Positions 48,815 through 63,999 are shown, counted from the stretch's first letter. The stretch: DNA of 64,000 nt from Promethearchaeota archaeon (GCA_019057795.1 JAHLWS010000077.1:1-64000); one strand, 5' to 3'. The notes: generated from the sequence alone by a model not told the origin. Numbers and translations: made by a program.

Positions 48815-50590
48815 ATGAAATACAATAAAATCATTATCCAATTTAACTCCCAATCAAAATCAGGAAAAATTTCTGAAGCAATTAAACTTGCTAAAAGCCT
48901 TAAAGCCAAATTTGATGGAAAATATTATGAAGTACTTTTTAATTCTATCAATGATAAAAATCTTCTATTATTAAGCAATTTAATAGGATTTCTGAGCGGT
49001 TCTCGGATTTTTATTGACGATGAAGATTGTGGGCGACCCTATAGATTGGGTGAAAGACTAGATTTTAAAAATAATTGTCCAGATTATGAAGATTTTTGTA
49101 ATGGAAATTGTTCAATTACCATGTTTAGGACTGAGAATGATCTTAAAATTGCGAGGAGGATTTGTAAAAAGTTTAAAGAACCTAAAATACAAAACACAAT
49201 AACAAATGAAAAAAAAGAGAGAAAGAAAATTATTTTTCAATTTAACTCCAAATCTAGAGGAGGGGATGTTCCTGAGGCTATAAAAATTGCAAAATCTCTT
49301 AGATCAGAATTCGATGGGAAAAATTATAAGGTCTATTTCGATTCTGTAAGCAATGAAAATCTGTTATTATTAGATAATCTAGTCGGGAGCCTAAGTGGAA
49401 CTCGATTTTTTGTGAATGGCGAAGAGTTAGAACCTTACATATTGTCTTCCATTTTTAATTGTCCACAAAAATCAAAATGTGATGGAAAATGTGTATATAT
49501 TTACCACGAACCTTCATCTGCTACAGCAAAGAAGTATTGCAAAAAATTTAATGAAACTCTTAGTATAAAAAAACCAATAATCACATACAACGGGCGTGAG
49601 ATCTTATGGATCAACAATGAAGATGATCCTGCATTCCCTAAAAACCCAGATAATAAATATATATTGATTGATAGTCCCAGAGGTTTTGGGCCTAATTCAA
49701 TTATAGGTGTTGAGATGGAAAAAGCAGACTTAATTTTTGATGATATGAAATATAGTATGATGGACGAGGAGGAATCTATACCTGAGGAAAAAGGATTTGT
49801 ATTAAATATACCCTTCGTAGGCATAATAGATATATCAAAGATTGAAGGATTGGAAAAACTTACTGAATTGAAAAGATTGGACCTTTATGGAAATGAGATT
49901 TTTGAAATTAAAGGACTTGAAAGACTTATTAATTTGGAGTACTTGGATTTGAGCGGAAGTGAGATTACGGAGATTAAAGGGCTAGAAAATCTCATTAATC
50001 TAAAGGGCTTAATTTTGAAAGCAAACAACATTAATGAAATTAGGGGATTAGAAAATCTTGTTAATTTAATTTATTTAGATATATCTGAGAATCCAATTTC
50101 TGAAATTAAGGGATTAGAAAACTTGGTAAATTTAAAGCATCTTGTTCTTACTGATATTAAAATTGAAGAAGAATCATTAAATCAAATTGCTGAAGAAAAT
50201 GTTCCAGAAGAATTAAAACAAGTTATTAAAGAAAATACTTTATTTATGTATAATTATTATAGTTTTCCTAATTACGCTCAGAAGTTTGTAGAATATTGTC
50301 AAAGAAAGAAAACTAAGTCTTATCGAGAGGATAAAGAGAAAATCAAAAAGATTGAGGAAATTATGATTGAATCAGATTCCCTTAGTCTTGATACCTTAAG
50401 AGACACTCTAAAAATGGATGCTCATACTTTTAGTAATAAAATTTTAGATTGGGCTATAGAATATGGGTTTGAAATTGATGGAGATTATTTAATTACTAAT
50501 AAAAATACTCTCTCTGACTTTATTGATGAATTAGATAAATATTTTACTTTATGGAAAAAAGAAAGTAGTATACCAAAAAAAAAAGTTTAA
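48815..50590 (+). CDS. Duplicated Cys-containing N-terminal domain + SDS22-like LRRs + C-terminal winged-helix module
   Basis: Two copies of KII.QFNS.S..G...EAIK.AKSL...FDGK.Y.V.F...CP...C.G.C...CKKF; IKGLE.L.NL..L.L repeats; tail DFIDELDKYFTLW. Confidence 0.85.
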   Translation: MKYNKIIIQFNSQSKSGKISEAIKLAKSLKAKFDGKYYEVLFNSINDKNLLLLSNLIGFLSGSRIFIDDEDCGRPYRLGERLDFKNNCPDYEDFCNGNCSITMFRTENDLKIARRICKKFKEPKIQNTITNEKKERKKIIFQFNSKSRGGDVPEAIKIAKSLRSEFDGKNYKVYFDSVSNENLLLLDNLVGSLSGTRFFVNGEELEPYILSSIFNCPQKSKCDGKCVYIYHEPSSATAKKYCKKFNETLSIKKPIITYNGREILWINNEDDPAFPKNPDNKYILIDSPRGFGPNSIIGVEMEKADLIFDDMKYSMMDEEESIPEEKGFVLNIPFVGIIDISKIEGLEKLTELKRLDLYGNEIFEIKGLERLINLEYLDLSGSEITEIKGLENLINLKGLILKANNINEIRGLENLVNLIYLDISENPISEIKGLENLVNLKHLVLTDIKIEEESLNQIAEENVPEELKQVIKENTLFMYNYYSFPNYAQKFVEYCQRKKTKSYREDKEKIKKIEEIMIESDSLSLDTLRDTLKMDAHTFSNKILDWAIEYGFEIDGDYLITNKNTLSDFIDELDKYFTLWKKESSIPKKKV

Positions 50591-50597
50591 TTCTAAG

Positions 50598-51734
50598 ATG
50601 TCATTTAACGATCAAGCTTTATCAGCGATAAAAAATAATTGGTGGTTAAGACGATTTTCTAGACGCTTTTGGATTCTTAATACCACAAATTTTATTTTTA
50701 TCTTACACGATAATATCGCAAATTGGATGGGTAAGGCAGTCCCGTTATATTTGCCAAAGGAAATGATACTATTATATTATAATAGAAGAACAAAGAAATT
50801 TCGACTATATGTAAAAAATAAAATTACAATTAAAATGCTTAACGCTTTATGTAATGCTCTTAAATGTACGAGCCCTTCCTTTAAGACTCATGGAATATAT
50901 TTAGATTCATTTGACGATCCTGATCTCACTAAATTTAAAAAAACTCCAGAAGGAGAAATATATTTTCAAGAATTACAATGCGGAGAAAATTGCGTTATTT
51001 ATAACGGAGAGTATTATTTGATTAAAATGGTAAATTTTTATTCTCATAATTTTGGAATGTTAGATTTGAGTAAAAAAGGAATTCGAGATACTTCTGAAAT
51101 AAAGGGATTAGATACTCTTCAAATTTTAGGTGAATTAGATTTAAGCAATAATAAAATTACTGAAATAAAGTGTCTTGAGAATCTTAATAATTTATATAAA
51201 TTAGATCTTAACAATAATAGAATTACTGAAATAAAAGGAATAGAATCTCTTAAACGATTGCGATATTTATATCTAAAAACTAATCTGATCAAGGAGATCA
51301 AGGGGCTTGAGAACTTTGCAATTGATCGAACTGGAGGAGATATGGAGTTAAATTTGGGAGATAATCCAATACCCTTAACTCTATTAAATAAATTAGGAGG
51401 ACTAAATAAAGATGGTTTCGCTAACAATCTTGAAGAACTTGTGGATTACTGCATTAAGAAAAACATAGAAATCGAAAAATTAGATAGAAGTTCTATTGTG
51501 AAATTAAAAAAGATCTTAAGAATTTCTAATCGTTTCAGGCTAGATATGCTGATGGATATACTTGATATAGATAAAAAAACTCTTATTAAAATCGTTGAAA
51601 AATGGTCTGCTGATTTCGGTCTTGAAATAAATGGAAATTATTTAATAATTAAAAAAGATACGGTTTTGGAATTCATTGACGCTTTAGATAAGCAATTTAA
51701 TGAATGGGAAAAAACAGATATGAAAAATAATTAA
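50598..51734 (+). CDS. SDS22-like LRR protein + C-terminal winged-helix module
   Basis: LDLSNNKITEIKCLENL repeats; tail EFIDALDKQFNEWE homologous to that of 48815..50590. Confidence 0.85.
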   Translation: MSFNDQALSAIKNNWWLRRFSRRFWILNTTNFIFILHDNIANWMGKAVPLYLPKEMILLYYNRRTKKFRLYVKNKITIKMLNALCNALKCTSPSFKTHGIYLDSFDDPDLTKFKKTPEGEIYFQELQCGENCVIYNGEYYLIKMVNFYSHNFGMLDLSKKGIRDTSEIKGLDTLQILGELDLSNNKITEIKCLENLNNLYKLDLNNNRITEIKGIESLKRLRYLYLKTNLIKEIKGLENFAIDRTGGDMELNLGDNPIPLTLLNKLGGLNKDGFANNLEELVDYCIKKNIEIEKLDRSSIVKLKKILRISNRFRLDMLMDILDIDKKTLIKIVEKWSADFGLEINGNYLIIKKDTVLEFIDALDKQFNEWEKTDMKNN

Positions 51735-51772
51735 AATCTCATAATTTAATTTTTTTAAGAACAGAACTCAAT

Positions 51773-51895
51773 ATGCGAACCTATAAATTGATTCAACAGT
51801 TTCGAGAAAATTGCATTATTCAAGGTAGAAAAGAGGATTTATTAAAATTTAAAGTAGGAGATACTATTTTTTTATTTTTGTTTAAGCAAAAATAA
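51773..51895 (+). pseudogene. Truncated paralogous copy of the 5' end of the Cdc48-N-like gene
   Basis: MRTYKLIQQFRENCIIQGRKEDLLKFKVGDTIFL versus MNTYKLIPQLRNGLIIQAKKEWLSDFKIGDTIFL at 53447. Confidence 0.75.
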
Positions 51896-63450: not shown

Positions 63451-63507
63451 TTAATTGAAGAAAAGTTTGAAAGTTTCTGATAGAATAAGGATAACAAAAA
63501 GTTAATA

Positions 63508-63600
63508 TGTTATCCCGGAAATTGTTTTTAAAATCAAGGGCTTAGAAACTTTAAGCTTAAGTGCTAATCGGCTAAAAAATATTCCAGAGGAAATTTCTAC
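63508..63600 (+). pseudogene. LRR remnant
   Basis: VIPEIVFKIKGLETLSLSANRLKNIPEEI with no start codon. Confidence 0.5.
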
Positions 63601-63678
63601 TCCATATTTTCTCTTTTTAAATCAATCAATTGCATAGACGAGAAAGAAATTGTATCCATATCTCAAAGAAATTTAGTA

Positions 63679-63999
63679 TTATTTTTTTCCATTTCCACTC
63701 ATTTCCCATTTTTTATATTGGTCCATCAGGTTATCAATCTCAGCAAGATTTGACTGCAGATTAAACGCAACAGATTTTGTACTATCGAAGTATTTAGCAT
63801 AAATCTCATCATTTGAAATCATTTCCTTTACTGTTAGTATTATTAAATCTTCCCTTTCGTTTACTTCTTCCACGATTTCTATTATTTGTAGCCTTGCAAA
63901 CTGTGTTCCCAGAGTTAAAATTGTATTCTTAATCTTAGCAATTTTTGTTTGTTGAATCAGATCTTTTATCATTTTAGTCTGATCATTTTTCTTGGCATA
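63679..63999 (-). CDS. 3' end of another protein carrying the PCI/winged-helix module (5' part beyond the window)
   Basis: Frame is open to the window edge; ILTLGTQFARLQIIEI...MISNDEIYAKYFDSTKSVAFNLQSNLAEIDNLMDQYKKWE. Confidence 0.85.
   Translation of the reverse strand, partial: YAKKNDQTKMIKDLIQQTKIAKIKNTILTLGTQFARLQIIEIVEEVNEREDLIILTVKEMISNDEIYAKYFDSTKSVAFNLQSNLAEIDNLMDQYKKWEMSGNGKK

Follow-up and report, generated by a model that had tools for sequence, protein, structure and literature searches.

UFM1, UFC1, PCI-MPN complexes and families of substrate receptors are regarded as hallmarks of eukaryotes. The first 64 kb of contig C77 (198.8 kb) from a Promethearchaeota archaeon with a 4.95-Mb genome of ~28% G+C (GCA_019057795.1, JAHLWS010000077.1:1-64000; this 64,000-nt stretch is hereafter called the window) contain a complete UFM1-type cassette. 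Its operon also encodes an Rpn11-like protease and members of a large family of receptor-like proteins that changes quickly. What is the domain that these proteins have in common, and how may it relate to the conjugation genes among which it is encoded? An initial annotation of the window had pointed to eight otherwise unrelated proteins between positions 48815 and 63999, each with a winged-helix/PCI-like module and one terminal helix, and had proposed that this helix recruits the E2. Here we describe the module, on the basis of predicted structures, as a PCI-type domain that may serve as a common plug for interchangeable receptor bodies.

The published record on these components in archaea is short. 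One survey lists UFM1 and UFC1 as eukaryote-only (PMC10183829), and a later one describes, for Asgard archaea, nothing beyond the Ufm1 fold (PMC12962969). Ufm1-fold and UFL1/DDRGK1-like proteins in Asgard archaea have been published, as have HTH/PCI domains in Asgard ESCRT-linked proteins, and our literature search found no paper on the module family or on a UFC1-type operon.

The shared module is predicted to adopt a PCI-type fold

The eight proteins share a whole domain of ~95 residues, which goes beyond a motif and is matched by the module hidden Markov model (HMM) in each of them at E values of about 1e-22 to 1e-34. Folding the module of the LRR protein P0004 as an alignment with 47 relatives in AlphaFold2 gave a model with a pLDDT (predicted local distance difference test) of 90, containing helices at residues 4-27, 33-40, 45-57 and 76-97 and strands at residues 30-32, 63-66 and 71-74, in the order H-b-H-H-b-b-H. 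A Foldseek comparison with the PDB returned PCI subunits of the COP9 signalosome (CSN), the proteasome lid and eIF3 as the top ~45 matches, and VIA-align placed eIF3c first, with a Z score of 10.8 over 98 residues. A shape search of the ESM Atlas likewise gave eukaryotic PCI clusters in 10 of 10 rows, the best match being CSN2, with a template modelling (TM) score of 0.76 and a root-mean-square deviation (rmsd) of 2.3 Å over 94 residues (7-101), the tail helix included.

Matches to sequence models ranged from marginal to significant, the copies of the window staying under the Pfam cut-off. At E<=1e-4 the Pfam PCI model PF01399 recognised 15 of the 124 family members, the best at 2.5e-7, and one relative (L021:1514-2290) reached 25.3 bits against a cut-off of 22, while PF09743 (E3_UFM1_ligase) and PF09756 (DDRGK) gave no match in the eight proteins at E<=0.1. 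Genome-wide, the latter two models found an 802-residue open reading frame (ORF) on C77 and nothing else apart from one weak PF09743 match on C70. The structural comparison with UFL1/DDRGK1 winged helices suggested in the initial annotation did return a likeness (8c0d_B, Z 9.5, rmsd 9.1; 8b9x_A, Z 9.5 over 66 residues, rmsd 1.7; 8ohd_A, Z 9.0), with scores within about 1.3 Z of the PCI rows. Because the fold searches and the Pfam matches point to PCI proteins and the UFL1/DDRGK models do not match, we call the module PCI-type, with a C-terminal helix coming after the winged helix, and on the predicted model the IDxL..W helix that had first drawn attention corresponds to the one found behind the winged helix of PCI proteins. 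A DNA-binding winged helix-turn-helix regulator was considered and rejected as the main reading, given that repressors appeared only at Foldseek ranks 46 and 48, that the nearest folds are PCI, and that the domain ends receptor-like or membrane proteins.

A near-invariant tail on many different bodies

Searching 1.84 billion cluster representatives with the family profile yielded 772 representatives at E<=1e-3, 345 of them at E<=1e-10. Tail-bearing modules mostly lie at the very end of the protein, 175 of 185 ending no more than 25 residues from the C-terminus, and share the consensus N-I-D-E-I-D-K-L-M-x-x-Y-K-E-W-E, with the terminal form IDxLMxxYxxWE-x4-GKK. Across 170 tails, L, Y/F and W were each present in all 170, I in 167 and M in 151. 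The segment after the tryptophan is similarly constrained: 138 of 167 tails have eight or nine residues after W, a lysine stands at W+7 in 154 of 167 and at W+8 in 110 of 167, and in 104 of 167 the chain ends at W+8.

The bodies to which the module is attached are diverse, comprising TPR (17), LRR (12), beta-helix (11) and Arf/Ras (4-6) proteins among the 124 members, as well as NosD (beta-helix), Roc GTPase, WD40 and zinc-ribbon bodies and many without a Pfam match. A tree of 64 modules resolved orthologous lineages across genomes rather than recent local duplicates, and tandem modules occur within single proteins.

In the whole 4.95-Mb genome, a regular expression for the tail matched 14 ORFs, of which 10 were real; nine of these lie within 48.8-65.2 kb of C77, and the tenth adjoins a second E2 gene on contig C49. 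Similarly, 12 of the 15 module-HMM matches in the genome belong to two paralogous operons, the other three being weaker. Two of those three were read and proved to be winged-helix relatives of subtype B without the FxxW...GKK tail, namely a protein of ~350 residues with a C-terminal zinc ribbon (C79:70379-71443, minus strand) and a TPR protein (C34:32977-33726, minus strand). Frames of ~350 residues like the C79 protein were also matched in several genomes of the same genus, with or without E2.

Module-bearing proteins of the window

All eight motif strings quoted in the initial annotation were recovered in the translations, and its view that different bodies carry one winged-helix/PCI module was borne out: three LRR proteins (P0001, P0002 and P0004), two TPR proteins (P0003 and P0006), one protein whose body has no Pfam match (P0005), one membrane protein (P0007) and one protein cut by the window (P0008). 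P0001 (48815-50590, +) has a duplicated N-terminal domain followed by LRRs and a C-terminal module (~50312-50590, HMM E 1.1e-23, tail FIDELDKYFTLW), and P0002 (50598-51734, +) joins LRRs to a C-terminal module (~51465-51734, HMM E 1e-23, tail FIDALDKQFNEWE). In P0003 (52035-53411, +, frame open from 51918), TPRs precede a C-terminal module of subtype C (~53067-53411, HMM E 9e-22, tail KIDELSTTIEGW), and in related operons its orthologues occupy the same position, flanked by the genes for SPFH and P13. P0004 (55538-57004, +) consists of an 11-unit LRR, a linker and a C-terminal subtype A module (56720-57004, HMM E 4.5e-32) with the tail EIDKLMSAYKDWEDKEVGKK directly before the stop codon, and P0005 (58287-59333, +) ends in another subtype A module (~59049-59333, HMM E 1.2e-31).

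The second TPR protein is encoded by one split gene (P0014/P0006, 60328-61762, +) with a subtype A module at 61478-61762. A +1 shift in an A10 run (61003-61013) divides this gene into the ORFs 60328-61026 and 60761-61762 and lengthens the 102-nt spacing of the TPR repeats by one base (205 versus 204); sequencing error or slippage may account for it, or the gene may be a pseudogene. Position 60761, earlier taken as a gene start, is thus the start of an out-of-frame ORF, and the TPR gene begins at 60328. P0007 (61813-63450, +) carries two tandem N-terminal modules (61813-62088 and 62119-62412, HMM E 5.8e-26 and 1.4e-25), followed by a Cys-rich body and hydrophobic membrane segments, and its orthologues are kept in related operons. 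The description of a module followed by a terminal helix therefore fits most members but not P0007, in which both modules are N-terminal and the helix is internal. The member at 63679 is the subtype A C-terminal end (63679-64000 in the window, HMM E 4e-28) of a minus-strand gene for 392 residues that runs past the window (63682-64857 on the contig). All eight members thus stand, and the family in this genome is larger than eight, with a 78-residue fragment on C77 and two module proteins on C49 in addition.

Linkage of the module to the UFM1-type operon, and its exceptions

The tie between the module and the UFM1-type E1/E2/modifier operon is supported: module genes are interleaved with the operon not only in the window but also in the C49 paralogue, in independent metagenome contigs and in a further genome. 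Within the phylum, the E2 was found in 39 of 400 genomes; within the same genus, it was found in only 5 of 41. The co-occurrence check proposed earlier gave a mixed answer: a module match was found in 33 of 39 E2-positive and 60 of 361 E2-negative Asgard genomes, counts in which kin are not independent and many E2-negative matches are winged-helix-only relatives, so that the module is enriched with the E2 but not restricted to E2 genomes. A strict W-E-x4-G-K-K-stop pattern at the DNA level, with 22 matches in the 400 genomes versus ~17 in a reversed control, is too insensitive and noisy for co-occurrence.

Departures from this linkage take several forms. In two closed genomes of a distant family, no module gene lies within 10 kb of the core operon, and 6-11 modules with the W...GKK tail are found elsewhere in the same genomes. 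In two further apparent exceptions, contig ends carry other core genes. Six genomes (89-100% complete) without an E2 or P13 match encode an internal module, with the helix and W kept, fused to TIR in proteins of 650-1150 residues that read (binding-protein)-beta-helix-module-TIR (L031:3101-6394, minus strand; L033:2648-4621, minus strand; L032 and L034-L036); the modules of these fusions form a clade nested inside subfamily A. Judged by analogy, their sensor-hub-effector layout is typical of immune proteins. One closed-quality genome has two intact terminal modules and one relic without the core genes, and tail relics, which the strict pattern brought to light, also occur in E2-less genomes (in G166, and in G236 and G237 as a bare pattern match).

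Core genes of the UFM1-type operon

The operon brings together genes for an E1, an E2, a ubiquitin-like protein and a JAB protease. The UBA5-like E1 has a ThiF fold (54536-55363, +; Pfam ThiF 2e-53) and the tail GEIDDLIDKLKE, and its best solved relative is UBA5 (8.5e-48 versus 1.5e-28 for MoeB). The UFC1-like E2 (59715-60257, +) has an invariant Cys in the motif MICHEH and scores 23 bits (E 7e-5) with Pfam UFC1, just below the cut-off, and its family profile finds UFC1 first in the PDB (1.8e-6), the next E2 following at 0.05. The gene for the Ufm1-like modifier of 88 residues, which ends in RGIVG directly before the stop codon (59452-59718, +), overlaps the E2 gene by 4 nt. In relatives, the modifier and the E2 occur as in-frame fusions with the modifier N-terminal (…RGVVG-linker-E2; P0201 and P0209), and open frames of ~273 residues for modifier-E2 are present in six genomes (G170, G175, G278, G274, G173 and G147). 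Because a modifier fused to its E2 needs a protease for release, these sequences suggest a processing role for the JAMM protein, which presumably frees the modifier from the fusions. A relative (L037:3834-6524, minus strand) encodes an 897-residue protein, P0235, in which SIR2-like and TPR regions are joined to a UFC1-like domain with the motif MISHDH (catalytic Cys changed to Ser) and to a Ufm1-like domain that lacks the final VG.

The Rpn11-like JAMM/MPN+ protein (57057-58247, +; Prok-JAB 30.3 bits) has invariant E, HxH, S and D residues and a C-terminal extension of ~250 residues; in fold comparison, the MPN domain alone (~150-210 of 396 residues) matches Rpn11, BRCC36 and CSN5. Its reading frame, open from 57057, covers the catalytic-Glu region SENEIYGW, and the first ATG, GTG or TTG stands at 57270. 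The same N-terminal region is found in the C49 paralogue and in relatives, and an unusual start codon, upstream coupling or a crippled N-terminus are all possible. P13 (53447-54529, +) is a conserved core protein of 360 residues, without an assigned family, with a C-terminal zinc ribbon; a feature search of the atlas gave no usable match for it.

How the module may act

Taking these observations together, we favour a reading in which the PCI-type module is a common plug that joins interchangeable receptor bodies to a shared platform working with the UFM1-type machinery, and we give this reading an even chance. The plug would consist of the winged helix, the amphipathic C-terminal bundling helix and a short tail with its near-invariant lysine, and it would sit on target-binding bodies of many kinds (LRR, TPR, beta-helix, small GTPase, zinc ribbon or membrane anchor). 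The platform would in turn work with the UBA5-like E1, the UFC1-like E2, the Ufm1-like modifier and the Rpn11-like JAMM protein. Joining would most likely be PCI-style, the winged-helix edges and C-terminal helices packing against other modules such as those of the two-module P0007, and the JAMM protein, with its helical C-terminal part, might offer a further packing surface; candidate sockets are therefore other modules (notably those of the conserved two-module membrane protein), the C-terminal half of the JAMM protein and the E2. The bodies would choose the targets of the E2-modifier conjugate or of the JAMM protease. The analysis shows the domain with its fold class, its modular spread and its genomic linkage, whereas binding by the module, the identity of its socket and the selection of targets are inferred. 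PCI logic is supported by the presence of an Rpn11-type MPN+ gene in the same operon together with tandem modules in single proteins, by the position of the module between sensor and effector in the TIR fusions, where an oligomerising element would be expected, and by the orthologous lineages that the modules form across genomes.

Several results weigh against this reading. The UFL1/DDRGK1 winged helices tie with the PCI rows to within about 1.3 Z, and the copies in the window stay under the PF01399 cut-off of 22 bits, with 19.6 bits (E 0.001) for P0003 and 14.7 bits for both P0004 and P0007. The C-terminal region of the JAMM protein, one of the putative sockets, is modelled at a pLDDT of only 41-59 and is not conserved in the distant family f13, and profile-profile comparison of the module with the multi-winged-helix protein WH488 and with the JAMM protein found no similarity, so neither is a disguised module. 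Copies number 1-12 per genome and their bodies vary freely, in contrast to the lid, CSN and eIF3 with their fixed horseshoe of six PCI subunits. Finally, the strict W, the Lys seven residues on and the fixed distance to the C-terminus correspond to no known PCI feature, which hints at a more specific partner. A bolder version of the plug reading has Asgard archaea build a PCI-MPN platform with exchangeable receptors (LRR, TPR, beta-helix or GTPase) as its PCI subunits, which would steer UFM1-type tagging and de-tagging towards chosen targets, possibly in immunity; such a platform, from which the proteasome lid and CSN would later have arisen, seems to us improbable.

The initial annotation took the tail helix for an element that docks in the E1-tail groove of the UFC1-like E2, making the LRR/TPR proteins plug-in non-RING E3 receptors, a possible but less economical account than the PCI plug and one that we consider unlikely. 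The literature behind it holds: the C-terminal helix of UBA5 binds a groove of UFC1 through L394, L397, M398, M401 and M404 (PMC8481289), and the terminal helix of UFL1, at its N-terminus, occupies and competes for the same UFC1 site (PMC10702826). The I-L-M-Y-W spacing of the tail (i, i+3, i+4, i+7, i+10) equals that of the five UBA5 residues (PMC8481289), a spacing that any a/d amphipathic helix shares. Profile alignment places hydrophobic residues of the archaeal E2 at six of the seven hydrophobic positions of the human UFC1 groove, with both basic residues retained, and in this genome the canonical W...GKK tail is concentrated beside E2 genes, while winged-helix relatives elsewhere are without it. 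However, the tail helix aligns structurally with the PCI C-terminal helix, it is internal in P0007, and helix and W are kept in the TIR fusions of genomes without an E2 or P13 match, some of them 98-100% complete. In the human UFC1-binding sequence (UBS), moreover, the last hydrophobic residue is the C-terminus and contacts the E2 through its free carboxylate, whereas here eight residues follow W, and a search for longer E2 fusions found no fusion of module and E2, only the SIR2-TPR-E2-like-ubiquitin-like protein. The claimed likeness of the tails to the tail of the E1 proved weak: with a 12-column position-specific scoring matrix of the tail, omitting W, over 5323 ORF C-termini, the C77 E1 tail ranked 8 of 5323 with 7.7 bits, compared with 30-39 bits for subfamily A, and the C49 E1 ranked 1281, which would leave the likeness to the E1 tails of this genome close to chance level. 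A complex prediction of E2 and module (score 0.01, mark 0.32) was run without controls and counts neither for nor against binding.

The conserved lysine raises a different idea, that the module proteins are mainly substrates whose near-invariant C-terminal lysine accepts the Ufm1-like modifier, with the module presenting it. The adaptor DDRGK1/UFBP1 of eukaryotes is UFMylated in its own PCI-like winged helix, and the lysine frequencies and chain ends given above, like the position of the module genes among conjugation genes, would fit such a role. The G-K pair is nevertheless kept at internal modules (P0007 and the TIR fusions), where it may cap the helix instead of serving as a free acceptor, and this AT-rich proteome has a great deal of lysine overall. 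We consider the idea very doubtful. Defence offers a broader alternative, in which the module family would be pattern-recognition-like sensors with the PCI module as an oligomerisation switch and an effector supplied either in cis by TIR or in trans by UFM1-type tagging. An immune-type role is a serious rival given the defence neighbours, the patchiness, the debris and the TIR and SIR2 fusions together, even if we think this particular scheme unlikely. Directly upstream lie Hma and an operon of CARF, CARF-PIN, MkoA-like helicase and PLD genes; the E2 is patchy in both genus and phylum; and the locus holds debris in the form of the 78-residue module fragment, the frameshifted TPR gene and the JAMM gene, in which no canonical start precedes the catalytic Glu. 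The beta-helix-module-TIR proteins with their modules nested in subfamily A, the fusion of SIR2, TPR, the Cys-to-Ser UFC1-like domain and the ubiquitin-like domain in a relative, and the set of E1, E2, ubiquitin-like and JAB genes, which is that of the bacterial Bil defence system (bioRxiv 10.1101/2023.09.04.556158; PMC10557695), point the same way. Yet the PADLOC matches are generic (ThiF to a Cap2-type E1-E2 at 1.5e-18, E2 at 1.1e-3 and JAB at 1.4e-3), defence-island neighbours were seen beside only one of the two operon copies, and a role in membrane quality control would suit the SPFH protein, the ESCRT-II-like winged-helix protein and the membrane anchor just as well.

Relation to known systems

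The module resembles the PCI subunits CSN2, CSN3, CSN4, eIF3c and Rpn5-7 (PF01399) in its winged helix and C-terminal helix and in its marginal-to-significant PF01399 matches, and the Rpn11-type MPN+ gene beside it recalls PCI-MPN complexes. TPR-like repeats precede the winged helix, as in PCI subunits, in P0003 and P0006 only; the LRR, beta-helix, GTPase, zinc-ribbon and membrane members are without such a solenoid. Unlike PCI subunits, the module is a portable end-piece of ~95 residues on all these proteins, occurs in 1-12 copies per genome, lies in a prokaryotic operon and ends in a conserved W-E-x4-G-K-K C-terminus. With UFL1-DDRGK1 (UFBP1) it shares a winged-helix basis, the absence of a RING and the tie to a UBA5/UFC1/UFM1-type cascade, and its amphipathic helix has the hydrophobic spacing of the UBA5 UBS and the UFL1 helix. 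It differs in lacking a PF09743 or PF09756 match and in its helix, which follows the winged helix and is not always at a free end, and the genome's own UFL1/DDRGK-like protein is the separate 802-residue ORF.

The F-box, SOCS-box, BTB and DCAF receptors of cullin ligases combine variable LRR, WD40 or TPR domains with a small shared docking element, and they are generally known, as would apply here, for many paralogues per genome and rapid turnover; the module differs from them in its unrelated fold, its prokaryotic setting and its UFM1-type modifier in place of ubiquitin. Bil operons (bioRxiv 10.1101/2023.09.04.556158; PMC10557695) are similar in their combination of E1, E2, ubiquitin-like protein and JAB, their location in defence islands and their patchiness. 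Here, in contrast, the enzymes are of UBA5/UFC1 type, P13, SPFH and WH488 are additional conserved proteins, a large receptor family without counterpart in Bil is present, and the matches in PADLOC are generic only.

If the plug does join receptors to tagging or de-tagging enzymes, it would provide the first case, among prokaryotes, of receptors that can be exchanged on a ubiquitin-like machine, and would offer a compact, testable model for the origin of scaffold-type E3s or of PCI-MPN complexes. Were the PCI-MPN platform real, the logic of swappable receptors and the partnership of PCI and MPN would predate eukaryotes, and were the locus a defence system, ubiquitin-like immunity would extend to archaea.

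Genomic setting of the locus

The plus strand holds nearly all genes from 46.4 kb to contig position 65.2 kb, and the nearest relatives of the proteins are named Lokiarchaeota, Promethearchaeota and similar. The operon is led by WH488 (46443-47909, +), a multi-winged-helix protein of 488 residues, and by an SPFH/Band-7 protein (47943-48800, +). Two defence-type systems lie directly upstream (25428-44698 of the window), namely the Hma defence system (HmaA 1.8e-188, HmaB 2e-95 and HmaC 4e-115) and an operon of CARF, CARF-PIN, MkoA-like superfamily 1 helicase, PLD and RNase III-like genes, and the UFM1-type locus is within a defence island.

The second operon, a compact paralogue on contig C49 (810-9469), encodes a winged-helix protein, SPFH, P13, E1, JAMM, modifier and an E2 that is 85% identical to the C77 E2. 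It has only two module proteins, one joining a double zinc ribbon to the module and the other, on the opposite strand, a membrane protein with two modules. The stand-alone module fragment of 78 residues lies as debris at the edge of the C77 locus (contig positions 64983-65216, minus strand), and an E2 fragment of 59 residues was seen at the edge of a related contig (L009:17877-18053). The UFL1/DDRGK1-like ORF of 802 residues is situated at ~105.8-106.8 kb of contig C77, ~40 kb downstream, beyond the window and outside the operon, and scores 59 bits with E3_UFM1_ligase, over the cut-off, and 35 and 29 bits with DDRGK.

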